From positions 1,024,001-1,088,000 of the forward strand of contig OY763927.2 of the NCBI GenBank assembly GCA_963667665.2: a stretch of 64,000 nucleotides of DNA, written 5' to 3'. The number at the start of each line of letters is the position of its first letter. Position 1 is the stretch's first letter. The position numbers and the translations under genes were made by a program. Source of the DNA: Nitrosopumilus sp. (GTDB lineage: Archaea; Thermoproteota; Nitrososphaeria; Nitrososphaerales; Nitrosopumilaceae). This document shows positions 15,697-27,826 of this stretch, piece after piece. A model generated the notes under the pieces. It did no database searches, had not been told where the DNA came from, and worked only from the letters and a program-made list of their open reading frames with translations.

Positions 15697-15823
15697 CCCG
15701 TGGTAGCTCAGCCTGGTAGAGCTTCCGGCTGTAGTTGTTGGCTTTAGATGGCTGACCGAATAACAGCATATCAGGCATACAGAAACCGGGTTGTCGGTGG
15801 TTCAACTCCGCCCCACGGGACCA
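15697..15823 (+). tRNA. tRNA-Tyr(GTA) with 50-nt intron at 37/38 (15735-15784), encoded CCA
   Basis: Acceptor CCCGTGG/CCACGGG, D-arm TAGCTCAGCCTGGTAGAGC, anticodon GTA 15731-15733, T-arm GGTGGTTCAACTCCGCC, BHB-like pairing. Confidence 0.95.
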
Positions 15824-16185
15824 CAATTTTTTCTATGAATAAAAAAATGATTTTAAAATTATCTATTGTCCTCTTTTCATTCCTACTAATACCCTAAAAG
15901 CGGGTATTAACAGGGGTATTAAGAAATTTTTTTACAATATAGAAATAAAATTCCTTGCTTAGTCACTTTGAAAAAGCTATGAAGACTCTTTGAATAAAGA
16001 CTTGATTAAAGGAGAAAAAGCTATGAAACCTCTACCAAAGGCACGTTGAATGTCTTTGAAGCAAAATTCTAGCTTTTTTAGGCACGTGGAAAATGTCGTG
16101 ATAGGTAATGCTGGTGCCTGTGATTGTTCTACAAAGTAGAGTATCTGAGATTCAACGAGATTTAGAGTATAATATTTCACATATT

Positions 16186-19100
16186 TCATTCAGGAATTTT
16201 ATCTAAAATAGAAATTTCAGAATCTGAAAATTGGTAAAGTTTGTAAATTAAATCATTTAATTCATGATCGTCTTTAGAAATGACTTTATCAATTTTTGTG
16301 ATTGAATCAGTTTTTGTTTTGAAATACTGTTCCCAATCCTCCTGTTCAGTTGGAGTTAAAGTTGATTGAGATATTTTTTCTAGTTCAGACAAGAATTCGT
16401 TAAATTGGATAGTATAGAAATTTTTAAAATCTGTAGATATTGATGAAATATTGAATTTGTGAAAAACGCGATTCCAGAAATTTTGCTCTTCTTCAATTTT
16501 ACTTTTGTAATTCTTCAACAGTTTTTCTACTAGAGAGATGATCTGTTTTTGTTGATTCTCATCTGCATTAAAAACAGGGAATAATCTAAATTTTGTTACA
16601 CCAATATCTACTCCAACACCTCTGTGTTTTCCATATCTATTGAACCAATATCTAGCCATATTAGAATTCAAAAGACCCAAAAGATATTTGAGATCAAAGT
16701 TAGAATCTTTTTTAGAAATTACAGAAAAAGAAAATCCAACAAAATATTGTTCCTCATCATAATAGAATTCCGGAGAAGAAAACATTCCTTTACAAATTAA
16801 TTTAGGATTGAGAAAAAAATGATCAGGTCTAGGTCTGTGTAAGCCATAAGGATGATTTACGGATGTAATGAAAGGAGACAAATTATCTAGATGTTTTTGA
16901 ATATTAGGATATTCGCCATCTGAGATTTTTTCTCTAACTCCTTCATCAGAATAAATTAGATATTCATTTTTGAAACTAATTGAATACTTTCCAACTGCAG
17001 TACTAACGAGATATTTTTTTAGAACTTCTTGTTCTTGATTGCTAAAATTAAGAGATTTCATTTCTGATTCAGATAAAACAAAAATTCCATCACCTACTTG
17101 GAATTCTTTAGAACCAATTTCATCAAGTGCATTTTGGTCTACTTTATCAGTAGATTCTTGAACACCTGTTGATGAATTATAGACATCACCCAAGTCACTG
17201 CAATTTTTAAAGTCTATTTCATCTGGAAAGAAATCCAATGAAAGATCAGGAGTGAACAGTTTTGAATATGGTTTGATGATTTTATTTTTTTCCAAGATTA
17301 CTTTTTTGAATTCTTTTTTGTCAAGTTTGATGTATGTTGTTTTATCGTTTGCTTGTGTCTTGTTTTTACGATATAGATGAATCATATGTTTGTCGCTCAC
17401 GTCTTTGAAAACTTTGATCTTCCCAAAATCTACACATTTTTCTAAAATTAAATTATCTTTAATTCTTTGAATCATTTTTTTAGAACCTGAACTCTTATAC
17501 CAATAACTATTGGTGATTAATCCAAATCGTCCTCCATCTTTTAGAACTTCAATTGCTCTATGTACAAAAAAATACCAATAGTCCATCTTTCCTTGATGAT
17601 AGTCACCCAAATCAGCATTGATTACAGGCTCAAAAGTATCCTTATTGTCCATTTCTTTAGCGTATGGAGGATTTGTTACTACGATGTCAAACCCAGGTTC
17701 ATCACGCAATTTTTCACTAAGTATTTCTGGAAATTCTGCGTTCCAATCAAATCCGGTCCCATCATCATTTTTATCAGTCAAACTATTTCCATGTTGGATT
17801 CTTGCAGAAAGGCCAATCAACTGTCTTCCTTTAGAGGCTATTTTTAAAAATAAACTTAATTTAGTAATTTCAACTGATTCAGAATTAATATCAACACCAT
17901 AGATGTTATCTTTGATTATACCTCTTGCAAAAACTTTTTCGGATTCTTTATCAAATGTCATCCACTTTTGAGTGCCAGATCTTTTTCCTTTTGTTGCATG
18001 GATGTAAGAACCACCTTTTTGTTTAAATTTTTGAATTTCATCATGAATTGAAAGTAAAATATCTACAGATTTCACTAAAAATGCACCACTACCACAAGCA
18101 GGATCAAGAATTTTGATTTTTTGAAATTTATCTTCTAATTCTTGGATATTATCTTTATATTCCAAAATTAGTTGGTGTGGTTCAGTTACACCTTTTTTTG
18201 AGAGATATGGAATAATTGTATTTTTACAAATGTATTCTGTAACATATTCAGGCGTATAAAAAACTCCTTCTTTTTTTCTTTGAGATTTCTTTTTGTTTTG
18301 TAATTCTTCTAAATCACCAATAGATTGTTCAAAAATATGTCCTAGAATATTGACGCTGATTTTTTCATGATACTCATCTGTATCTTGATCCTTGGAATCA
18401 TCAGGTTCATCATTGAAGTCATATGAATCCATTTTGAGCAGATTAATGATTATTGGACTAATTTTTCCATTGTAACGATCTACAGCATTTTGACGAATTT
18501 TGTTTAATTTGACTCTCTCAGGTACTGGAACTTTTTCTGTAATTTTATCAAAAAAGGATTTTTCTTTAAAATCGTAGAAAAAGGCATTCCTATCCATAGG
18601 TTCTTTAAAGAATTCTCCATTGAAACCGGATTTATTGTCAATTTCATTACTACCTGTATCCATCCATGAGAATATTGTTTGAATGTAATCTGAAATTTTA
18701 GTGGTTTTTTCTTTAACGTCACCCGAATTAAGAAGTGCCAAAATTCCATCAGAAAATATATCCTTTTTGACCAGATTATTATCTTCGGCAAAAAATAAGA
18801 AAATTAATCTGTTGAGATAAGTTTGAGCAAATTTTATTGCATCATCATTATCTACATTTGATTTATCTTGAAAGGCATGTATTAACATTAATCTTGTTTG
18901 ATGATATAGTTTATAGAAATCATCTGTAAGATCTTCTTCTTCAACTTCAGTTTCATGTTTTAATGTTTTTATGAATCTTGAATCTATACTATCTTTGGAA
19001 AATATAGAAATGAATTCTATGATTTCTTGTTCTAATAATTTCATTTTTTTAGGTGGAAATGTAAATTTGTAACATTCTGCTCTCATAGATTCCCTTGTAA

Positions 19101-19518
19101 TGAGTACAAATTCTTCAAAATTTGTAACTACAGCATAATCAATTTCAGGATTTTTTTCAATGTATGTAATTGCTTGTGTAATCGGAGTATCTTGTTCTTT
19201 TTTATCATAACCCTGAAATTCAAATAATTTCTTTTTTCTGCTTTTTAATTCAAATAAAACACCACCAGATCCAGAAGGGGGAATATAGCTAAAATCTAAT
19301 CTATTTACTTCCTCTCGGATTTTTTCTCTTGGATATCCAAGAGCATCAATCATCAAATCTCTAAAATGTCCTTTGTTTTGTGTTTCTATTTTTAATTCGT
19401 CAGCGTCTAAACGCTCTTTCCATTTTTTTACAGGTGTTTTTTGTTTTGGTAAAATTTTTTTCCCTGTACAAAGTTCTTTTCTTTTTGTTTCAGAAAATAG
19501 AGTATTTGGAATTTCCAT
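16186..19518 (-). CDS. Type IIG (Eco57I-like) restriction-modification enzyme: endonuclease + N6-adenine MTase + target recognition domain
   Basis: N-terminal LDF...FELK nuclease motif, GVFYTP, motif I DPACGSG, motif IV NPPY, TaqI_C-like YLLGLLNS. Confidence 0.9.
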   Translation of the reverse strand: MEIPNTLFSETKRKELCTGKKILPKQKTPVKKWKERLDADELKIETQNKGHFRDLMIDALGYPREKIREEVNRLDFSYIPPSGSGGVLFELKSRKKKLFEFQGYDKKEQDTPITQAITYIEKNPEIDYAVVTNFEEFVLITRESMRAECYKFTFPPKKMKLLEQEIIEFISIFSKDSIDSRFIKTLKHETEVEEEDLTDDFYKLYHQTRLMLIHAFQDKSNVDNDDAIKFAQTYLNRLIFLFFAEDNNLVKKDIFSDGILALLNSGDVKEKTTKISDYIQTIFSWMDTGSNEIDNKSGFNGEFFKEPMDRNAFFYDFKEKSFFDKITEKVPVPERVKLNKIRQNAVDRYNGKISPIIINLLKMDSYDFNDEPDDSKDQDTDEYHEKISVNILGHIFEQSIGDLEELQNKKKSQRKKEGVFYTPEYVTEYICKNTIIPYLSKKGVTEPHQLILEYKDNIQELEDKFQKIKILDPACGSGAFLVKSVDILLSIHDEIQKFKQKGGSYIHATKGKRSGTQKWMTFDKESEKVFARGIIKDNIYGVDINSESVEITKLSLFLKIASKGRQLIGLSARIQHGNSLTDKNDDGTGFDWNAEFPEILSEKLRDEPGFDIVVTNPPYAKEMDNKDTFEPVINADLGDYHQGKMDYWYFFVHRAIEVLKDGGRFGLITNSYWYKSSGSKKMIQRIKDNLILEKCVDFGKIKVFKDVSDKHMIHLYRKNKTQANDKTTYIKLDKKEFKKVILEKNKIIKPYSKLFTPDLSLDFFPDEIDFKNCSDLGDVYNSSTGVQESTDKVDQNALDEIGSKEFQVGDGIFVLSESEMKSLNFSNQEQEVLKKYLVSTAVGKYSISFKNEYLIYSDEGVREKISDGEYPNIQKHLDNLSPFITSVNHPYGLHRPRPDHFFLNPKLICKGMFSSPEFYYDEEQYFVGFSFSVISKKDSNFDLKYLLGLLNSNMARYWFNRYGKHRGVGVDIGVTKFRLFPVFNADENQQKQIISLVEKLLKNYKSKIEEEQNFWNRVFHKFNISSISTDFKNFYTIQFNEFLSELEKISQSTLTPTEQEDWEQYFKTKTDSITKIDKVISKDDHELNDLIYKLYQFSDSEISILDKIPE

Positions 19519-19626
19519 TTTTTAGACAAAATGTGTTTTTTATTATACGTTCTAAAGATTTCTATTAATATGAAATTATGATGAACTCTTCATAATTTAA
19601 TAACTTCAGAGATCATAAACTAATAC

Positions 19627-22600
19627 TTGGTTCTCAATGATTCTCAAAAACAGGCAGTAGAACATCTCGATAGTCCCCTTTTAGTCTCTGCAGGTCCTGG
19701 AAGTGGAAAAACAAGAGTAATTGTTGAAAGAATAAAATTTCTAGTTGAAAATAATCATGCCAAAAAATCAGAGATTTTATGCCTGACATTTTCTGAAAAA
19801 GCAGCCCAAGTGATGTCAGACAGATTAGAAGAAATTTTTGGAGATGTTTCTGAAATGCAAATTAGTACATTTCACTCATTTTGTCATGACATTCTAGGAG
19901 ATAATGTCCTTGAAACAGGAATTGGTATTACAGATGTAATAGATAGAGCAAGTCTTTTGGTATGGGGTCTTAAAAATATTGACAGTTTTGGATTTGAACA
20001 TATTGAAATTGGAAACAATGCAGCAGAAGTAATTGAATCACTAATTGATGGTATTAGTACATTCAAAGATGAACTAGTTAGTTCTGATGAATTAAGAGAA
20101 TATTTAGATAAAAAACAAAGCCAAGAAGATATCAATATTGAAGAAAGAGATTATCTTCGTATGCTAGATGACTTGCACAAAGTCTATGTAAAACATATAG
20201 AATTTTTGAGAAGTGCAAAACTAATTGATTTTGATGATATGATTGTACTTACAAATGAAAAACTAAAAGAAAAACCAAACATGCTAAAAAAGTATCAAAA
20301 GAAATTCAAACATATTCTAGTTGATGAATTTCAAGACAACAACTTTGCACAATTTCAACTAGTACAACAACTAACACCAGAAGGAAATCTCACAGTAGTG
20401 GGAGATGCTGATCAAAGCATTTACAAATTCCAAGGAGCATATGATAGAATTTTTCAGCATTTCAAAGAAGCATATCCTGATTCAACAGAAATAATACTTG
20501 CAGAAAACTATCGTAGTCCAAAAAATCTAGTTGAGCTTGCAGGTCAATTACTAGAACCAATTATAAGTAGAGAACCAAAGAAATTATTTTCAAACAAAGA
20601 TGATAAATCAAAGACAATTGTTGTTCGTTGCAATAATGATATGGCTGAAGTTGAATATGTGGTAAACCAAATTAAAGAGATTCTAAATTCTAATTCAGAA
20701 TATTCTTTCAAGGATTTTGCAGTATTATCAAGAAAACGAGCAGATGGTAAGAAATTTGCCCAGTCACTGAATGCCTTTAACATTCCTGCCAACTATGTAG
20801 GAGATACAAAGATTTTCACATCGGCCACAGGCAAAAACATGCTTTCTTATCTGAAAATTATGGCAAATCCAACTACTTCAGGCATGCACATCTACCGTGT
20901 TTTGAGGCTACATGGTATTTCAGAGCAAAACATCTCAAAAATCATGTATCAGGCATCACGAAAGGCTAGAAAATCAGATACTGATAATGACTTTGTTTAT
21001 GATTCATTGTGTGATGATATTTCTGAAATTACCCAAAAACCAGAATTAAGGGAATTATCTGATTTGTTTTCAAGGATTACCAAACTTGAAACAATGCAAA
21101 GTGTCAGCGAATCAATTTTACAAGTAATGATGAAAGAGACGGATTTGTACAAGAGTCTTACAAGAGAAGATACTCTTGAGAATAGAAATTATCAAACAAT
21201 TCTAAAAGAAATTTTCAAGATTGCTCAACAATTTGAGAATCTAAATCCTGATGGTACAATTGACGATTTCTTGGGATATCTTGAGTCACTTGATAAATTT
21301 GATATTGAAACTGAAGAAGGATTAGAATCAGATAATACAGTTCAAGTATCTACAATTCACCAAAGTAAAGGTAAAGAATTTCCATTTGTCTTTGTTGTAG
21401 ATGTTGCTCAAAGAAAAATGCCACTAAAGTATAACCCAAAAACATTCTATGTTCCTGATGAATTATCAAAAGGATTAATGATGCATGATACAGGAAAAGA
21501 AAGTTACATCAAAGAAGAAAGAAGATTACTCTATGTAGCAATGACTAGAGCAATTAACCAACTATTCATCATATTTCCAATAAAATACACTAGCAATAAA
21601 AGACCAAACAAACCATCACAATTCTTAGACGAATTAAATTATGATGAAAATGATTTAATTGAACTAATTGACTTTAATGGAAAAACTCAAGAATCAATGC
21701 TACAAGACCAAGAGCGACTAGATATTCTAAAAAATGATTATGCAGGACAAGCAATTACACATCTTAATCAGATGCAATTTCAAAGTGCAGTTAAGAGAAT
21801 TATTGATCTTGCTAAAATTGATTACTTTGAGAAAAATAAAACTTTGGATGGATTCTCTGCTGAATCATTTCTAAAATCAGAAGACAATGAAGAACTTGAA
21901 AGTCAATTATTTGAAAACAAAATTCCACTAGTGAACAAAGAGAAACTAAGATTATCAAAATCTAAATTTTCAGTCTATCAGGAATGTCCACTAGAGTACA
22001 AATTTTCACATGTTCTTCGAGTGCCTACTATTCAAGGAACTGCCCAATACATGGGAAATGCATTTCATAAGGTAGTGGAGATTCTGGCTGGAATTGAAAT
22101 GGAAGGCAGAAAACCTACCTATGAAGAAGCCCTTGAGACGCTTGAAAAGACCTGGAATTCTAATGCGTATTTGAAAAAACCCAAGAAAAAGGAGCAAGAA
22201 GATCGTCAATTAGTGGAAAATATGCTTCAAACATACATTTCATGGCTAGAATCAAACCCCAATTCAGTAGTGGATGTGGAAAAGAAGTTTCAGTTAGAGT
22301 TTGAAGGTATCAAGATTACAGGTGATATTGACAGAATCGAAAAGACACCTGCAGGGAAATACCATATTGTTGATTTTAAGACAGGTAAAAGTATTCCCAG
22401 TGGAATTATCAAAAATATTTCAGAAGATATTCAAATGAATCTTTATGCTTTGGGAGTAGAAAAACTCTACAATGAATTACCAGAAAGAAGTTCATTATAC
22501 TATATTAGAAATGAAAAAACTATACCATATGATGTTGATGCAACCAAAGTTGAAGAAATTAAAAAACAATTAGAAGAAAATACAAAATCAATTCTAAATG

Positions 22601-22683
22601 AAGAGTTTGATGCTACACCCGGAAAACCATGTAGAAATTGCTCTTACAAAGATATTTGTGATTATAAAGTAACTACATATTAG
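19627..22683 (+). CDS. UvrD/REP SF1 helicase fused to PD-(D/E)xK nuclease with Fe-S-type cysteines (AddA/AddB/Cas4-like)
   Basis: LNDSQ, AGPGSGKT, DEFQD, GDADQSIY, ENYRS, TIHQSKGKE, EERRLLYVAMTRA; C-terminal ECP, GDIDRIE..VDFKTG, CRNCSYKDIC. Confidence 0.92.
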   Translation: MVLNDSQKQAVEHLDSPLLVSAGPGSGKTRVIVERIKFLVENNHAKKSEILCLTFSEKAAQVMSDRLEEIFGDVSEMQISTFHSFCHDILGDNVLETGIGITDVIDRASLLVWGLKNIDSFGFEHIEIGNNAAEVIESLIDGISTFKDELVSSDELREYLDKKQSQEDINIEERDYLRMLDDLHKVYVKHIEFLRSAKLIDFDDMIVLTNEKLKEKPNMLKKYQKKFKHILVDEFQDNNFAQFQLVQQLTPEGNLTVVGDADQSIYKFQGAYDRIFQHFKEAYPDSTEIILAENYRSPKNLVELAGQLLEPIISREPKKLFSNKDDKSKTIVVRCNNDMAEVEYVVNQIKEILNSNSEYSFKDFAVLSRKRADGKKFAQSLNAFNIPANYVGDTKIFTSATGKNMLSYLKIMANPTTSGMHIYRVLRLHGISEQNISKIMYQASRKARKSDTDNDFVYDSLCDDISEITQKPELRELSDLFSRITKLETMQSVSESILQVMMKETDLYKSLTREDTLENRNYQTILKEIFKIAQQFENLNPDGTIDDFLGYLESLDKFDIETEEGLESDNTVQVSTIHQSKGKEFPFVFVVDVAQRKMPLKYNPKTFYVPDELSKGLMMHDTGKESYIKEERRLLYVAMTRAINQLFIIFPIKYTSNKRPNKPSQFLDELNYDENDLIELIDFNGKTQESMLQDQERLDILKNDYAGQAITHLNQMQFQSAVKRIIDLAKIDYFEKNKTLDGFSAESFLKSEDNEELESQLFENKIPLVNKEKLRLSKSKFSVYQECPLEYKFSHVLRVPTIQGTAQYMGNAFHKVVEILAGIEMEGRKPTYEEALETLEKTWNSNAYLKKPKKKEQEDRQLVENMLQTYISWLESNPNSVVDVEKKFQLEFEGIKITGDIDRIEKTPAGKYHIVDFKTGKSIPSGIIKNISEDIQMNLYALGVEKLYNELPERSSLYYIRNEKTIPYDVDATKVEEIKKQLEENTKSILNEEFDATPGKPCRNCSYKDICDYKVTTY

Positions 22684-23426
22684 ATTAGAAACTCAGATGC
22701 ATCTATTCCTTCTTGAGTGATTTTTATCCATCTGTTTCGTCCAATCTTTTCAATTTCAATGAATCCCCATTCATTTTTTAGGGGTTCTATGATATTTTTA
22801 TCTAAACTTGCAAATCTTGCTTGAGAATGATTTAATTTTTCTGCATTAATTGTAATTAGTCCTGTCTCTTCTGCAATTTCTGCCATCTCTTTTTTGGTAA
22901 TCTTTTGATTTTTTGCATCATGAATTATTTTCAATGCATCCAATAGTTTCTGTTTTGGAGTTTGTATTTCATATGTTGGTAATGGTATTGTATCTTTGAT
23001 TCCAAAGGATTGTTGTTTTCCTTCAAATGCGGCATATGTTTCAGGTTCCGCATAGAATGGTTGAATATTTTTGCATTCTTTTAGAATCATGCATGCCATC
23101 ATACATGCAATTGCTTGAATTTTAGAACCTGATGCTACATTGACATAAATGTAGTTGTTTTTTTCTTTTGAAATTATTTCTTTTACTGCTTTTATTACTT
23201 TGAATATGCTCAATCTGTCTGCATAAGATATCTCTAACTTTACTCCAAGTTTTTTACATTTTTTTCTAATTAATTCAAGGTATGGCCCTGATTTGTCTTC
23301 ACTAGTTTTTTCATGAACCAATAACCATAGTTTATCTGCCTTGGTTTCTTTTAGAGGGAGGACTATTCTATCAATTTCAAAGCCTAATGGGGCAATATGT
23401 ACTCGAAACGTGGCTAGTTTGCTCAT
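22680..23426 (-). CDS. DUF6293/HFX_2341-like regulator: CARF-like Rossmann domain + C-terminal winged HTH (Csa3-like architecture)
   Basis: VHIAPLGFEIDR, YVNVASGSK (cf. CARF NxSGGxK), C-terminal wHTH ending GRNRWIKITQEG; start refined to MSKLA. Confidence 0.75.
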   Translation of the reverse strand: MSKLATFRVHIAPLGFEIDRIVLPLKETKADKLWLLVHEKTSEDKSGPYLELIRKKCKKLGVKLEISYADRLSIFKVIKAVKEIISKEKNNYIYVNVASGSKIQAIACMMACMILKECKNIQPFYAEPETYAAFEGKQQSFGIKDTIPLPTYEIQTPKQKLLDALKIIHDAKNQKITKKEMAEIAEETGLITINAEKLNHSQARFASLDKNIIEPLKNEWGFIEIEKIGRNRWIKITQEGIDASEFLI

Positions 23427-23436
23427 AATGGTATCT

Positions 23437-23452
23437 ATAGTATGCATACTAT
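23437..23452. promoter_or_regulatory. Perfect 16-bp palindrome ATAGTATGCATACTAT, putative operator between divergent genes
   Basis: Self-reverse-complementary; sits in the 65-nt gap between the regulator start (23426) and the micro-ORF operon start (23492), next to TATA-like TATATAA at 23461. Confidence 0.65.
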
Positions 23453-23491
23453 GTTGATAGTATATAATAATTTCTATTACGTAATTATATC

Positions 23492-23608
23492 ATGAAACAA
23501 GAAAACATAATTCAAGAAAACGGATTTAATTCAAAGGCTTCTTTTTATCCTAGAATTATCCGAGAGTTCGAAGATAATGACGAACCAATGTTCTATGGAG
23601 GTAACTAG
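23492..23608 (+). CDS. Micro-ORF 1 (38 aa, acidic)
   Basis: MKQENIIQENGFNSKASFYPRIIREFEDNDEPMFYGGN; ~25 nt after the TATA-like box; stop abuts next ATG. Confidence 0.55.
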   Translation: MKQENIIQENGFNSKASFYPRIIREFEDNDEPMFYGGN

Positions 23609-23785
23609 ATGATAAGTAAAGTACTTCCAAAAGTAGATGAAAAAGAACCTGATTTTGGTTCTGAAGTTTCTGTAAAGAGAATGAACGGAAAGATGCACGA
23701 ATCAATTAACATGATCGATGCTACTTTGAAATCTAAAACAGAATCACTGGATAGTTTGTTGAAGAAATTGAAAGGAGTGATCTAA
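23609..23785 (+). CDS. Micro-ORF 2 (58 aa)
   Basis: MISKVLPKVDEKEPDFGSEVSVKRMNGKMHESINMIDATLKSKTESLDSLLKKLKGVI; SD GGAGGT at 23597. Confidence 0.65.
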   Translation: MISKVLPKVDEKEPDFGSEVSVKRMNGKMHESINMIDATLKSKTESLDSLLKKLKGVI

Positions 23786-23790
23786 TCTTG

Positions 23791-23961
23791 ATGACATCAA
23801 AAATAATCAATCAACAACATGACCAACATGTAAAGGTGTATTACCAACACCTAGAAATCCAAAAAAATATCCATCATATTTCTTGGAAAAATCATAACAT
23901 TGAACAATACATTCAACAAGCTTTGGATGAATATTTGAAAAATCAGGAAGATGTAAAATGA
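23791..23961 (+). CDS. Micro-ORF 3 (56 aa; C-terminal helix reminiscent of ribbon-helix-helix proteins)
   Basis: MTSKIINQQHDQHVKVYYQHLEIQKNIHHISWKNHNIEQYIQQALDEYLKNQEDVK; GGAGTG upstream; ATGA overlap with next ORF. Confidence 0.6.
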   Translation: MTSKIINQQHDQHVKVYYQHLEIQKNIHHISWKNHNIEQYIQQALDEYLKNQEDVK

Positions 23962-24131
23962 AAATAACAAGAATTCTTCCAAAGTTTCTTGCAAAATCAT
24001 ATCAAGAAGAAGATTTGAGACGAGCAGAAATTAATCTACAATATCATAAAGGTATGGTTAGATTTTTTGAAGACAGAATTGCTGATGGATATGATGAACT
24101 TGCAAGATTGAGGGGATATAATTGGAAGTAA
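23958..24131 (+). CDS. Micro-ORF 4 (57 aa, helical)
   Basis: MKITRILPKFLAKSYQEEDLRRAEINLQYHKGMVRFFEDRIADGYDELARLRGYNWK; ATGA-coupled. Confidence 0.65.
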   Translation: MKITRILPKFLAKSYQEEDLRRAEINLQYHKGMVRFFEDRIADGYDELARLRGYNWK

Positions 24132-24241
24132 TAACAGAAGTTACTCAATCGCACTTTGTTGTACTTGTAATTTTAGGGATTATCATTACATGTGTTGTAG
24201 TAATTAGCAATATTCCTCAAATTAGGAGATTCAAACATTGA
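24122..24241 (+). CDS. Micro-ORF 5 (39 aa, single TM helix)
   Basis: TTG start, MEVITEVTQSHFVVLVILGIIITCVVVISNIPQIRRFKH; GAGGGG upstream; TTGA overlap with next ORF. Confidence 0.55.
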   Translation: MEVITEVTQSHFVVLVILGIIITCVVVISNIPQIRRFKH

Positions 24242-24441
24242 CTAAGAAAACTCCACCATGTCCAATATGTAAGAGTAAAAATGTTGCATGGATTTTTTAT
24301 GGATATCCAGGAAACATGGAATGGTATCTTGAGGCAATAGCAAAAAAGGAGATTGTTGGTGGGGGCTGTGAGATTTCATTTGATGATCCAAAATGGGTAT
24401 GCAATGGTTGTCATCATAGGTGGGGAGAAAGAGATGAGTAA
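24238..24441 (+). CDS. Micro-ORF 6: zinc-ribbon protein (67 aa)
   Basis: CPIC..IFYGYP...GGC....PKWVCNGC; SD AGGAG upstream. Confidence 0.75.
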   Translation: MTKKTPPCPICKSKNVAWIFYGYPGNMEWYLEAIAKKEIVGGGCEISFDDPKWVCNGCHHRWGERDE

Positions 24442-24727
24442 TCTTACAGTTGATTCCAAGAAAAAAAGTGCATCAGAAGCCTTTGTCAATTCTTTTGGGG
24501 GCTATCCAATAGGATATGCAGTAGGAATTCTAATTTTGCCAATATCTATGGGCTGGATTCAAGAGGATCCTCTAGTTGCAAACTTGGCAATTACTTTTGT
24601 CTATGCTACAGTTTCTTTTGTTCGGAGTTATGTTCTAAGAAGAACATTTGAGAAATATGGAATTGATGATAATTTCTTAAGAGCAGGTATGAAATTGATT
24701 AGAAAAATTTCATTGAGGAGAATGTAG
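24434..24727 (+). CDS. Micro-ORF 7: small 2-TM membrane protein of a type often seen in viruses
   Basis: MSNLTVDSKKKSASEAFVNSFGGY...VSFVRSYVLRRTFE; start refined to the ATG overlapping the ORF 6 end. Confidence 0.75.
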   Translation: MSNLTVDSKKKSASEAFVNSFGGYPIGYAVGILILPISMGWIQEDPLVANLAITFVYATVSFVRSYVLRRTFEKYGIDDNFLRAGMKLIRKISLRRM

Positions 24728-24730
24728 AGA

Positions 24731-24988
24731 ATGGGTGAAGAAAAAGTATGTTGTATATGCAATGAACATAAGAAATTTCTTGGACGTATCAATGCAGGAC
24801 AAAAACTCTATTGTATGCAATGTCAAGCAAAAATTACTGAAGAATATGGAATGAATTATTGGAAACCATGCTCTTTTCAAGAATTCATGGAAGCATTTTC
24901 ATCTTCTATCCATAAAGGAAAAAGAAAACCAGCAAACATGTTTAATAATCTAAGAGAAACGTTACGAAAATTTGATGATGATATATGA
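24731..24988 (+). CDS. Micro-ORF 8: zinc-finger protein (85 aa)
   Basis: CCIC...YCMQC; SD GAGGAG upstream. Confidence 0.7.
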   Translation: MGEEKVCCICNEHKKFLGRINAGQKLYCMQCQAKITEEYGMNYWKPCSFQEFMEAFSSSIHKGKRKPANMFNNLRETLRKFDDDI

Positions 24989-25224
24989 ACCAAGAAGAAA
25001 TGACTCGCATAGTAAAAGAAGAATTAAGACACATTCCAAGTGGTGATGGTGTTATGCATGGATGGTTACAAACTTACTATAATAGACGCAGAAGACATGA
25101 TCTAACCAAGGGAAGAAAAAAGGAAGAAACACTGTCATGGTGTATTGATGAGATTAGAAAAGAATCTCCAGGGTGGCTTGCTGAATATGACATTACTTTT
25201 TTCAAAATCACCAATAACAAGTAG
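24985..25224 (+). CDS. Micro-ORF 9: hypothetical protein (79 aa)
   Basis: ATGA overlap with ORF 8. Confidence 0.7.
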   Translation: MNQEEMTRIVKEELRHIPSGDGVMHGWLQTYYNRRRRHDLTKGRKKEETLSWCIDEIRKESPGWLAEYDITFFKITNNK

Positions 25225-25261
25225 GAATAGTTATAGACATTGAAAAGATATTCAAAATAAA

Positions 25262-25698
25262 ATGACTCAACAAACTGCTAAAAAAGCAATTGCACTACTG
25301 ATTAAGAAAGATTCCAGGTTTCATGAACCTGATAAAAAGCAAAGAACTAACCTATCAGTTGCGTTTGCCAGAAAAAATATGATTCTTTATGGAAGAGCAT
25401 TTGATATTATAAAACTAAAAAAGAAATCAATTTAGATGATGGAGAAAAAGTTTTCAAAAACATTGATAGTATTCTTGTATATGAAATTAAATCTACTGCA
25501 AATAAAGATGTAGGAAAAAATTTTGAAAATTACTTTTTTAGTCTTAGTACTGCAGAACTTTTAGTTGCACAAAGCTTGAATGATAGATTCAGATTTGTAT
25601 TGGTGAATATCTTTACAAAAGAAACTCAAGATCTTACTCTAAAGAAATTTTTCAAAAAGGTTAGAAAAATTTATCCCACATGGTCCGTTAGTTTTTAG
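25262..25698 (+). pseudogene. PD-(D/E)xK (DUF3883-like) nuclease split by a -1 frameshift at A_AAA_AAG (pseudogene or programmed frameshift)
   Basis: Frame 0 MTQQTAKK...GRAFDIIKLKK then stop at 25433-25435; -1 frame continues EINLDDG...VYEIKSTANK...YFFSLSTAELL...WSVSF to 25698. Confidence 0.7.
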
Positions 25699-25707
25699 AG
25701 TATAATT

Positions 25708-26685
25708 TTGACTTTTCATGACTTGTCAAAAATTCTCATAATCACAACAGGTGAAACTGAAATGGATAGTCTTTTCGTAGAAGAATTACATTCCTCACCT
25801 GGTTTTCAAAATTGGGTTGCTGAAAAAATGTCATTGAAAAATTCTTACAAATTTAATAACGCTTGGAAATCTATTAACCAAATAACTGGAACACAATGTG
25901 ATATCGCTGTACGATTTGTCCATAACAAACACAGTGTGATTTTACTAATTGAAGATAAAATTAAAGCCAATGAACAACCTAATCAAGCTAAAAGATATCG
26001 TAAAAGTGGGGAATCTCTTGTTAAAGAGAAACACTGTGATGAATATTATACATGTCTTCTTTGCCCAAATCGTTATGATGAAGATGGTTCAATTAAGAAA
26101 AAATACGACAAGAGCATATCCTATGAAGAACTTTTAGAGTGGTTCAAAAAACAATCCACTTCTAAAAGATTACAACACAAACAAATGATTATAGAAAATG
26201 GAATTGAACTTTCCCGAAAAACATTTAAAAAAATACCTGATGAAAATACGACAAAATTTCATAATTACTATAGAAAAATTGCATTTGATATAGACGACGA
26301 ATTGAAACTTCCCAAGGGCATACCTCAAAAACAAAACACATGGATTCGTATTGGACATTTTGATTTTCCTAGTAACATCGAAATTAAACACAAAGGAAGA
26401 CATGGATTTGTAGATTTACAAATATCTAAAATGACAAAGTTAGAAAAAGAGAAATTTTCCAAATGGTTTGCTGGTAAGAAGGAAGATAAAATGACTCTGG
26501 AAAAGACTAACAAGTCGATATCTGTACGACTCGGTACCGTGAAAATATCTAAAGAGGATATTGCAGATGCTGTAGAACCTAAAAAATATAGAAAAGAAAT
26601 TGAAGAAGCCCTAGAAAAAGCAAAGATACTGAAGGATTGGTACTTCACGTGGTCTGATGATCCTATATTTGCACAGAAATTCTAA
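25708..26685 (+). CDS. PD-(D/E)xK nuclease family protein
   Basis: CDIAV...LLIEDKIKANEQPNQAKRY. Confidence 0.8.
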   Translation: MTFHDLSKILIITTGETEMDSLFVEELHSSPGFQNWVAEKMSLKNSYKFNNAWKSINQITGTQCDIAVRFVHNKHSVILLIEDKIKANEQPNQAKRYRKSGESLVKEKHCDEYYTCLLCPNRYDEDGSIKKKYDKSISYEELLEWFKKQSTSKRLQHKQMIIENGIELSRKTFKKIPDENTTKFHNYYRKIAFDIDDELKLPKGIPQKQNTWIRIGHFDFPSNIEIKHKGRHGFVDLQISKMTKLEKEKFSKWFAGKKEDKMTLEKTNKSISVRLGTVKISKEDIADAVEPKKYRKEIEEALEKAKILKDWYFTWSDDPIFAQKF

Positions 26686-26772
26686 ACTCTTTTTCAGGAG
26701 GATTTTACAATATCATCAATCTAGTGATTTTTAGGCTCAAATTTGTAAATATTATAGATCCCTATACAGGAT

Positions 26773-27465
26773 ATGGCCATTATCTATGGAATGGCAGACA
26801 GTGAGAGAAGGCTTCTAAACAAGCTCCCAAACGAAGTTAGAAATCTTGATGATATTGACAGAGTCAAAAAGGAATTCGAAGATAAGGTATCTAATGAAGG
26901 TGATGGAATTATTTCAGGAATCAAAAAATGGAACTACGTAAGACAAATCAACAAATTTGGAAAAGAAGAGGTTCGATTATTTCGTAAAGGAACTAGTGGA
27001 GAAAATCAAGTAATTGATGAACTATCAAAGCTAGAGGATAGTTATCATATTTTGTGTGGGGTAGATTTAGAATTAGATCATTGGTTTACCTATAACGGAG
27101 AAAGGAATCTAAAATCAGCTTCGATGGATTTGGTTGTAGTTTGTCACAAAGGCGTATACATGATTGAAGTGAAAAACTGGAGTAATCATTTTGCAAAGAA
27201 TAATGATAGCTTTAGTCCATACGAGCAAACTGAAAGAGCTGGTAGAGTTTTATGGATTTCACTTCAAGGAATATTCAGAAAGGTACGTGTAACAAATGTT
27301 CTATTATCTATAAAGGGGAATTTAGAATACAACAAGAACTATCGTTCAGTCTTTGTTTCAAGCTTGGATAGAATCAATTTTTTTCTGATGAGGAGAGAAG
27401 ACACTCTGACTGAAAAACAAATCAAAAACATTGTAAAAGATTTGAAAGGACACGTGACTAACTGA
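26773..27465 (+). CDS. NERD nuclease-related domain protein
   Basis: GTSGE..V, MDLVVVCHKGVYMIEVKNW, SPYEQ. Confidence 0.85.
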   Translation: MAIIYGMADSERRLLNKLPNEVRNLDDIDRVKKEFEDKVSNEGDGIISGIKKWNYVRQINKFGKEEVRLFRKGTSGENQVIDELSKLEDSYHILCGVDLELDHWFTYNGERNLKSASMDLVVVCHKGVYMIEVKNWSNHFAKNNDSFSPYEQTERAGRVLWISLQGIFRKVRVTNVLLSIKGNLEYNKNYRSVFVSSLDRINFFLMRREDTLTEKQIKNIVKDLKGHVTN

Positions 27466-27722
27466 TGTTTGGTTTATTCAAGAAAAAAGAAAAGGCCAAA
27501 ACATACACATACGAAGAAAAGAGGAAAGAAAGCCGCTTAGCATACGAGAAATGGAGAGAATCCGAAGACAACATTTTGAAGAGTTATTGGAATGACAAGT
27601 CAAATAGAAAAAGCAGGAGTGAAAAGGTGCAAGAATTATCTCAAAAATTAGAAAGAGGTAGAGGTGCAATTAGGTCAAGCCTCGAAAAATTTTCTGAAAA
27701 AATGGAAATTGTTCCTTTATGA
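27465..27722 (+). CDS. Small protein with Myb/HTH-like motif
   Basis: AYEKWRESEDNIL...ELSQKLERGRGAIRS; TGATG-coupled to the NERD gene. Confidence 0.6.
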   Translation: MFGLFKKKEKAKTYTYEEKRKESRLAYEKWRESEDNILKSYWNDKSNRKSRSEKVQELSQKLERGRGAIRSSLEKFSEKMEIVPL

Positions 27723-27826
27723 AATCACTCACAAAGGTAATACCCAAAATTATAGTTTTTAAAAATAATAAAAAGATAGACTGATTTAAGAAAACAAAAG
27801 AAATCTTAAATTAAAAAATTCTATGC

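Follow-up and report, generated by a model that had tools for sequence, protein, structure and literature searches.

A CARF-winged-helix regulator and its divergent microprotein in an accessory island of Nitrosopumilus: one copy of a recurrent cassette with exchangeable cargo

CARF sensors are understood almost entirely through the signalling of type III CRISPR systems. For HFX_2341 the accessible text of PMC11434293, the only experimental paper on this family we found, describes a repressor which represses genes when over-expressed and is encoded away from CRISPR. For the Csa3 regulators, the accessible part of PMC8844856 gives two motifs contacting cyclic tetra-adenylate (cA4), namely T-hydrophobic-G-F-(D/N)-E-x4-R (motif 1) and L-x2-G-hydrophobic-R (motif 2). 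Transcription factors coupled to very small proteins are known as TF-smORF (transcription factor-small open reading frame) modules; according to the available portion of Silpe et al. 2023 (PMC10432266), the factors of such modules lie on bacterial prophages and act as activators, and the small protein renders the phage's repressor of lysis inactive. In the present study we analysed a stretch of 64,000 nucleotides (the window) from Nitrosopumilus sp., corresponding to positions 1,024,001-1,088,000 of contig OY763927.2 in assembly GCA_963667665.2. All positions given below are window positions. The window is AT-rich (about 32% G+C) and belongs to a genome of 1.89 Mb which is 99.97% complete. A preliminary description had proposed that the locus at 22680-27722, where a regulator gene diverges from a row of very small genes, is an undescribed ligand-inducible system. 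In our analysis the locus is a copy of a modular accessory cassette that recurs in Nitrosopumilaceae; it lies in a hypervariable, tRNA-adjacent island beside a type IIG restriction enzyme. The core of this cassette comprises a putative repressor of the CARF3 family, a divergent region of 65 bp and an acidic microprotein of 25-40 aa, which is normally gene 1 or 2 of the divergent operon.

The regulator gene (22680-23426, minus strand) encodes a CARF plus winged-helix protein of 248 aa which belongs to the HFX_2341/DUF6293 or CARF3 family according to Pfam, PADLOC and a fold model. The open frame extends from 22680 to 23447 (255 aa), but since the Pfam match starts at residue 15 the ATG at 23426 is the likely start. 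HFX_2341_N (PF19810) matched with an E value of 2.4e-35 (122 bits, cut-off 30) over residues 15-138 of the 255-aa open reading frame (ORF) and positions 1-120 of 120 of the profile; the winged helix DUF6293_C (PF22665) matched with 6.8e-23 (81.5 bits, cut-off 27; profile 2-99 of 101). Csa3_N (6.7e-9, 36.2 bits, cut-off 27) and Card1-CARF were weaker than HFX_2341_N. The best PADLOC model was CARF3--CARF (4e-73, full length), and phmmer gave no match below E 0.09 among PDB sequences. An AlphaFold2 model built from 15 homologs reached a mean predicted local distance difference test score of 89.8. Its best Foldseek match was Csa3 with cA4 (6wxq, E 3.6e-9), and a probability of 1.00 was obtained against Csa3, Csm6, Can2, Card1, Cam1 and the CARF-HTH ring nucleases. 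The CARF plus winged helix-turn-helix (wHTH) architecture assigned to the regulator in the preliminary description is borne out by these matches.

The regulator motifs P13-L-G15-F-E17-x-D19-R20 and V-x-S-G100-S101-K102 vary little or not at all among 15 homologs. Judged by eye, these conserved pocket residues appear to correspond to Csa3 motifs 1 and 2 in position and pattern. The Pfam and PADLOC matches, the fold model and the conservation of the pocket motifs place the regulator in the HFX_2341/DUF6293 family and in the CARF superfamily. It is not a curated Csa3, its score with the NCBIfam model TIGR01884 being below the cut-off. The genome harbours four paralogs, three of them intact and the fourth broken by an internal TGA. 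Among 201 Nitrosopumilaceae genomes sampled, PF19810 was found in 101, which include the unpublished genomes G137 and G152.

Regulator and first divergent gene share a control region of 65 bp (23427-23491) containing half-sites, a palindrome, an inverted repeat and a TATA-like block. A TAGTAT-like half-site lies just past the regulator start codon, followed by the perfect 14-nt palindrome TAGTATGCATACTA at 23438-23451. A second inverted repeat (23446-23463) overlaps the palindrome and abuts the TATA-like block (about 23462-23472), and the ATG of s1, as we call the first divergent gene, is situated about 20-30 nt downstream of this block. The operator palindrome seen earlier is present, and with 0 or 1 mismatch it has no second copy in the 1.89 Mb genome, which argues for a dedicated local regulator. 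Of 17 fetched homologous loci, 15 show these elements again in unchanged order, the exceptions being two homologs of 28-29% identity, and in most mapped loci the ATG of the first divergent gene (s1 or a PIN gene) is found 64-72 nt from the regulator start. The three intact paralogs of the genome differ in half-site spacing or carry covaried arms (one pair covaried), as expected if the paralogs avoid cross-talk. Based on archaeal promoter rules, we infer that the AT-rich block is a bidirectional TATA box and the repeats are a putative repressing operator covering the B recognition element (BRE), the TATA box and the regulator start site.

The acidic microprotein s1 (23492-23608, plus strand) has 38 aa, with a core of 25-28 aa in most relatives, whose ORFs are mostly of that length. 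This core reads [F/Y]-P-R-I-I-R-E-F-[E/D]-D, followed by an acidic stretch and E-P-M-x-Y-G. Over the 10-codon core of 14 copies, 444 synonymous codon differences stand against 103 non-synonymous ones: codon positions 1 and 2 are nearly fixed and the third varies, arginine alternating between AGA, CGA, AGG and CGT. The motif is retained even in loci of about 70% G+C. In the genome carrying the window it occurs exactly three times, each time beside one of the three intact regulator paralogs, and not at the broken fourth. A hidden Markov model of s1 detected it in 39 of the 201 Nitrosopumilaceae genomes (13 of 27 genera). In a phylum-wide sample it was present in 15 of 56 genomes of the family and in none of 344 from other families. 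The comparison with PF19810 (101/201 against 39/201) indicates that s1 marks a sub-lineage of the regulator family.

Taking the 35 model matches at E <= 1e-5 as confident copies, s1 lies within 250 bp of a PF19810 gene in 21 cases and at 501-885 bp in 11. Altogether, 32/35 copies are within 1 kb of such a gene. Of the remaining three, one has it at a distance of 3.5 kb, and two come from fragmented assemblies in which it is on another contig. A spacing class of about 500-520 bp (9/35) fits a PIN-sized gene between regulator and s1. A PIN gene of 127-141 aa occupies this place in 9 of 27 fetched loci with a regulator match (Pfam PIN 6.8e-6), and the s1 start overlaps the PIN stop. Since autorepressed operators are usual for toxin-antitoxin-like addiction modules, s1 might neutralise a nuclease such as PIN while the regulator autoregulates the pair. 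We regard this as very improbable: the window and most loci have s1 without PIN, 21 of the 35 copies being close to the regulator, s1 is the sole gene on the divergent side in two loci (L022 and L034), and no toxin family was detected among the eight further small ORFs (s2-s9) in Pfam, PHROG, PADLOC or NCBIfam. Likewise, Pfam revealed no PIN gene in the window, so that the VapBC pairing of a PIN toxin with a small neutralising protein is not seen here. That s1 stands alone in two loci also speaks against its being no more than a leader peptide.

An exhaustive search of 1.84 billion representative proteins returned 94 s1 clusters, 91 of them of 77 aa or less; ten were looked up, and the sole name they carried was 'hypothetical protein'. 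As far as can be judged from sequence, s1 is an unannotated microprotein family and a conserved partner of the regulator. This pairing, together with the exchangeability of the remaining cargo and the location in a tRNA-adjacent accessory island, goes beyond what had been recognised before. The claim that the system is undescribed holds in part only: the regulator family is known (PF19810/PF22665, CARF3, and HFX_2341 in the accessible text of PMC11434293), but for the regulator-s1 module, the cassette and the peptide the full text searched (subscription journals and supplements lay outside its reach) holds no description. Two other interpretations of s1 were rejected. It is not a fragment of the PIN gene, since other loci have it as an ORF of its own immediately behind PIN. 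Long open frames in some genomes had hinted at PIN-s1 fusions; these were discarded because the loci concerned have about 70% G+C, and at such a composition long frames free of stops arise by chance. Among the 94 clusters a single protein is clearly larger, P0092 from a metagenome (402 aa); this long, highly charged protein has the s1 motif as its N-terminus and contains W-E-x-[FW]-L-[ED]-K motifs repeatedly. In one locus of about 70% G+C (L083, G112:C1:367500-372000) about 15 in-frame nine-residue repeats precede the s1 motif directly in one open frame.

The regulator system is CRISPR-independent, as assumed before. The genome contains no match to Cas1, Csm1, Cmr2 or GGDEF, and the single SMODS match, in a distant 446-aa ORF, is sub-threshold (22 bits, cut-off 26.5). 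This search covers cyclases of the Cas10 palm (Csm1/Cmr2), CD-NTase/SMODS and GGDEF types; unfamiliar cyclase families are possible. Neither the nucleotide cyclase that would mark cyclic oligoadenylate signalling or CBASS (cyclic oligonucleotide-based anti-phage signalling system) nor the association with cas genes or CRISPR that marks Csa3 was thus found. To judge from its residues, the CARF pocket looks intact, though no known producer of the usual ligands was found in the genome.

For the cassette we infer repression, a ligand, a role in defence and a task of the microprotein, and we favour, with a probability of about 60%, an autorepressed, ligand-gated cassette in which a CARF-wHTH repressor and its microprotein partner are coupled to exchangeable conflict-type cargo. 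A regulator dimer bound to the repeats would occlude the BRE and TATA box of the operon as well as its own transcription start, so that both directions would be shut. Binding of a ligand to the conserved CARF pocket would make the repressor let go of the DNA, and microprotein, membrane proteins and nucleases would then be made jointly as a response to foreign DNA or DNA injury. The microprotein, being co-inherited with the regulator, might feed back on the switch or arm the cargo. One form of such feedback would be that s1 itself binds the CARF-wHTH dimer as an anti-repressor or co-repressor, giving a self-contained feedback switch that gates exchangeable conflict cargo. We hold this special form to be unlikely. 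Were it true, a CARF-family sensor would for the first time have its output determined by a peptide coupled to it genetically, be it in place of a cyclic oligonucleotide or in addition to one, and the feedback switch would act in archaea without CRISPR or a known cyclase. A complex prediction of the regulator dimer with s1 gave 'no answer' (score 0.00), which weighs neither for nor against binding. Compared with RRNPP/arbitrium systems, the adjacency of receptor and peptide gene is common to both, but the receptor fold is CARF here and not TPR (tetratricopeptide repeat), and s1 is hydrophilic and acidic and has no hydrophobic leader as in their pro-peptides.

The nine co-directional, abutting or overlapping small ORFs reported previously at 23492-25224 (38, 58, 57, 57, 39, 67, 97, 85 and 79 aa) were recovered with the junctions described: TAG-ATG between s1 and s2, ATGA between s3 and s4 and between s8 and s9, TTGA between s5 and s6, and a short stretch shared by s4 and s5 as well as by s6 and s7. 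Each of the nine has homologs elsewhere, and tblastn detected full-length homologs of s1 and s4-s9 in other genomes of the genus (30-82% identity). The ratio of non-synonymous to synonymous substitution rates (dN/dS, Nei-Gojobori method, NG86) was 0.04-0.79 where computable and nearly always 0.7 or less; for comparison, the NERD gene of the locus shows 0.15-0.28. A hexamer coding model, for which 567 long ORFs of the genome were the training set, scored s1, s2, s4 and s6-s9 like the large genes of the island, while s3 and s5 scored low yet are conserved. Because of these homologs, dN/dS values and hexamer scores, the micro-ORFs are real genes and not chance ORFs.

All of them are encoded on the plus strand. 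The second one, s2 (23609-23785, 58 aa, coding score 0.54), has six non-self relatives of 58-59 aa in a collection of 5.8 billion proteins (76-86% identity, with an in-frame indel) and a syntenic homolog of 53% identity in another genus (dN/dS 0.65). The same collection contains seven relatives of s3 (23788-23961, 57 aa as called from TTG) with variable N-termini and lengths and the invariant core IHHISWKNHNIEQYIQQALDEYLK, and its start is tentative; its syntenic homolog in another genus is also 53% identical (dN/dS 0.45), and its hexamer score is -0.13. By tblastn, s4 (23958-24131, 57 aa) was found in 10 fetched loci (41-77% identity, dN/dS 0.14-0.66), the double CxxC zinc ribbon protein s6 (24238-24441, 67 aa) in 14 (30-70%, dN/dS 0.15-0.63), and s8 (24731-24988, 85 aa), with its CxxC...CxxC cysteines, in six (48-73%, dN/dS 0.15-0.71). 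The hydrophobic s5 (24122-24241, 39 aa) has two homologs at 58% (dN/dS 0.37-0.39) and weak family hints to PQ-loop and holin_2. The last ORF, s9 (24985-25224, 79 aa), has one homolog at 71% (dN/dS 0.21), and the ESM Atlas gave no usable match. A small membrane protein of the DUF7220 family is encoded by s7 (24434-24727, 97 aa; PF23858 1.4e-18, phrog_4276 2.9e-13, dN/dS 0.10-0.27). Apart from s6, s7 and s8 and the weak hints for s5, no family was found in Pfam, PHROG, PADLOC or NCBIfam. Altogether, the eight small proteins after s1 include two zinc ribbons, two membrane proteins (one of them DUF7220) and one short strand-plus-helix core.

The locus is part of an accessory island of 11.9 kb (15833-27756) between a tRNA gene and the 3' region of csp. 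To the left of 15832, eIF5A, a 203-aa gene and the tRNA gene are conserved; to the right of 27757, the csp 3' region, csp and eIF1A. In at least 13 genomes of the genus 13-20 bp separate these flanks, and in nine others the distance is 1.4-27.5 kb; the empty site was verified in the sequence of three genomes (G011, G181 and G236). Since the conserved flanks adjoin in some genomes and are kilobases apart in others, 15833-27756 is an accessory island at an insertion hotspot. The left edge is formed by an intron-containing tRNA gene (15697-15820, plus strand; Rfam tRNA 45.1 bits, E 5e-7), which ARAGORN in bacterial mode did not call but Rfam does detect. It is 97-98% identical in sister genomes, there with csp directly after it. 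The gene has a long intron and marks the hotspot used by inserts of 1.4-27.5 kb in the sister genomes. At the other edge, just downstream of the minus-strand csp, about 40 nt within 27757-27826 are 95-100% identical across dozens of genomes whose coding DNA differs by 15-25%; this stretch is probably the csp 3' untranslated region with an oligo-T terminator, possibly something more.

Presence/absence polymorphism at a tRNA-adjacent site, as is characteristic of proviruses and mobile elements, raises the question whether an integrated virus or plasmid has decayed here and left its switch and early region, with the regulator as maintenance repressor and the microprotein and other small proteins as early or anti-repressor genes. 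The series of very small zinc-ribbon and membrane proteins whose genes overlap at stop and start codons would suit this, and s7 matches, besides phrog_4276, 19 phage records by tblastn, including an Altiarchaeum virus and bacterial phages too. One gene is frameshifted, transposases occur near several regulator homologs, and the divergent layout of repressor and small genes resembles the TF-smORF modules as presented in the accessible text of PMC10432266. However, no integrase, replication, capsid or packaging gene or att repeat was found in 15833-27756. For integrases and recombinases, this refers to Pfam, PHROG and NCBIfam searches of the ORFs in 16186-27722, with ORFs below 30 aa and the stretch 15833-16185 not scanned as proteins; for att-like repeats, no direct repeat of at least 14 nt pairs the tRNA end with the distal edge, and only short AT-rich, chance-like repeats are present. 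A pattern scan of IMG/VR gave four pattern matches, none confirmed as a regulator relative, and blastn of 23427-27800 found no DNA match among 50,697 phage records. Moreover, the regulator-s1 pair also occurs alone or beside herA-mre11-rad50-nurA without other element-like genes, and wherever dN/dS of the small genes could be computed it was below 1, at odds with simple decay. We therefore consider a decayed element somewhat unlikely.

Two large genes of the island precede the regulator. A type IIG restriction-modification enzyme of 1110 aa (16186-19518, minus strand) is MmeI-like (Eco57I 6.5e-34, N6_Mtase, MmeI domains, TaqI_C; PADLOC REase_MTase_IIG 2e-59). The following gene (19627-22683, plus strand) encodes a UvrD-type helicase fused to a Cas4/AddB-like PD-(D/E)xK nuclease (1018 aa; UvrD-helicase 4e-63, UvrD_C 1e-43, PDDEXK_1 4e-37); it is convergent with the regulator gene, with an overlap of 4 nt.

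Downstream of s9, three PD-(D/E)xK nucleases and a Myb-like protein had been predicted. Two of the nucleases stood: a PD-(D/E)xK nuclease-family protein of 325 aa (25708-26685, plus strand; Pfam PDDEXK_4 9.9e-7, PADLOC PDC-S26 2.8e-5), for which none of 150 genomes of the genus yielded a relative at the DNA level, and a NERD-domain protein of 230 aa (26773-27465, plus strand; Pfam NERD 4.1e-13). A second NERD gene of the genome (G000:C1:1568828-1569571) shows 78% DNA identity to window positions 26740-27461. The supposed third nuclease is a small gene with a D...EIK motif (25262-25698, plus strand), 145 aa when intact, which has no Pfam family above threshold and only a weak hint to NOV_C (E 0.05 here, 0.003 in a relative). 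A frameshift in an A-run near 25425 splits it into 25262-25435 (57-aa ORF) and 25576-25698, the latter in an 87-aa open frame; intact 145-aa relatives exist at 97-100% identity, others at 49-62%. The family reaches bacteria, one relative being a hypothetical protein of Chondromyces apiculatus. The Myb-like assignment found no support: the 85-aa basic protein (27465-27722, plus strand; coding score 0.36) has no assigned family at E <= 0.01, the best Pfam matches being Spectrin_3 (0.03) and HTH_41 (0.15).

Nine contigs from RNA libraries (at least 99% identical; four metatranscriptome libraries from two studies) match the window and lie on s1-s2, s3-s6, the split gene, the NERD gene and the 85-aa ORF (27469-27629). 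As DNA carry-over is possible, they are a weak hint at expression. None covers the regulator gene or 25732-26775, which is not evidence of silence. The frame break of the split gene is also present in a contig spanning it.

The cargo behind regulator and s1 varies between loci: PIN proteins, s4-like, zinc-ribbon and DUF7220 proteins, beta-CASP/MBL nucleases or the UvrD-nuclease were observed. Mrr, a 1416-aa helicase with an MTES_1575 endonuclease domain, HNH, HD and DUF5615 proteins were found beside homologs, too. Ubiquitin-like, E2 or E1 genes adjoin the broken paralog of the own genome (ubiquitin-like protein and E1) and a distant homolog (E2 and E1, in this case with a TIR protein). At the broken paralog (locus L021, G000:C1:192416-193159), the regulator gene with its internal TGA is accompanied by a truncated PIN gene, no microprotein, a ubiquitin-like protein, two unknown genes and a ThiF/E1-like gene; this neighbourhood looks like a ubiquitin-like conjugation conflict system. 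In another genus the order UvrD-nuclease, regulator (63%), s1, s2, s3 ... s6 is preserved, indicating that this cassette subtype travels as a unit. The 313-aa DUF4268 protein at the end of that syntenic cassette was considered as a relative of the 325-aa PDDEXK_4 protein and rejected, there being no BLAST-detectable kinship.

A second recurrent location of the module is the 3' end of the herA-mre11-rad50-nurA operon (4/17 loci). In L022, L024, L029, L030 and L046 the regulator-s1 module abuts the rad50 3' end, in both orientations, and L046 has a second s1 copy directly after rad50. This placement may reflect another hotspot or a functional connection with double-strand-break repair. The latter would agree with a regulon for DNA damage or repair, in which the regulator would control recombination and repair nucleases and a helicase in response to a damage-derived nucleotide. 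UvrD-nuclease homologs adjoin regulator homologs in three different arrangements, including directly downstream of s1 (L027, L028), beta-CASP nucleases are cargo in several loci, and Csa3a activates DNA-repair genes in Sulfolobus according to the accessible part of PMC8844856. Core repair genes, however, are normally not strain-variable, whereas the distribution here is patchy (s1 in 39 of the 201 genomes) and the island is dispensable and lies next to a restriction enzyme. TIR, E1/E2, Mrr and HNH cargo is typical of conflict systems instead. We regard a repair regulon as quite unlikely.

Several points weigh against the ligand-gated conflict cassette that we prefer. With no producer of cyclic oligonucleotides found, the CARF pocket may bind something else or nothing, and the NCBIfam Csa3 model TIGR01884 reached 31.9 bits against a cut-off of 60.2. 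Judging from the 101 and 39 of 201 genomes with regulator and s1, respectively, many regulators of the family work without the microprotein. An 'effector' role of the small proteins, most of them without a family, is a guess. In 22680-27722 PADLOC did not detect any known defence system in complete form, several genes of the cargo are typical of DNA repair or mobile elements as well, and the cassette may be decaying, given that a cargo gene is frameshifted in the RNA contig, too.

The existence of a large CARF plus wHTH family in genomes where no CRISPR or known cyclase was found raises the question of what these pockets sense. The regulator-s1 pairing offers a small putative two-gene switch consisting of one protein, one peptide and one 65-bp operator. 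Its hosts are ammonia-oxidising archaea, which are abundant worldwide and little understood in their gene regulation and virus defence. Whatever comes after s1 makes the cassette a handle for new archaeal conflict genes, and s1 itself illustrates that gene callers overlook a conserved protein family of about 25 residues.

Compared with the known systems, HFX_2341 of Haloferax mediterranei is similar in that the regulator described here matches both of its Pfam domains above their cut-offs over the full length and is likewise encoded away from CRISPR; HFX_2341 behaves as a repressor (PMC11434293, accessible text). According to the same text HFX_2341 is a vertically inherited, global regulator, and a microprotein partner is not mentioned in that part of the paper; for the regulator described here, in contrast, the island is dispensable, as many as four paralogs occur per genome and the operator is found only at its own promoter. 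Csa3, Csa3a and Csa3b of Sulfolobales (PDB 2WTE, 6WXQ, 6W11), as far as the accessible descriptions go CRISPR-associated regulators of defence and DNA-repair genes, share the CARF plus wHTH architecture, the best Foldseek match and conserved positions of the cA4 motifs. However, identity is 12-13%, the score stays below the NCBIfam cut-off, no cas genes or Cas10 were found in the genome, and the predicted regulon comprises small proteins and nucleases, not cas genes. With the TF-smORF phage modules, as outlined in the accessible text of PMC10432266, the locus has in common a sensory transcription factor beside the very small protein gene it would control, a likeness of logic and not of sequence; it differs by its archaeal host, the lack of a recognisable prophage and the CARF sensor domain. 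Finally, the CARF/SAVED-gated defence islands (type III CRISPR ancillary genes, CBASS) likewise combine sensor (CARF), nucleases and membrane proteins in a variable island with a restriction-modification neighbour. In those systems CARF is fused to the effector or activates it directly and a cyclase is encoded nearby, whereas the CARF domain of this Nitrosopumilus cassette, in a genome where no cyclase was found, would gate transcription.

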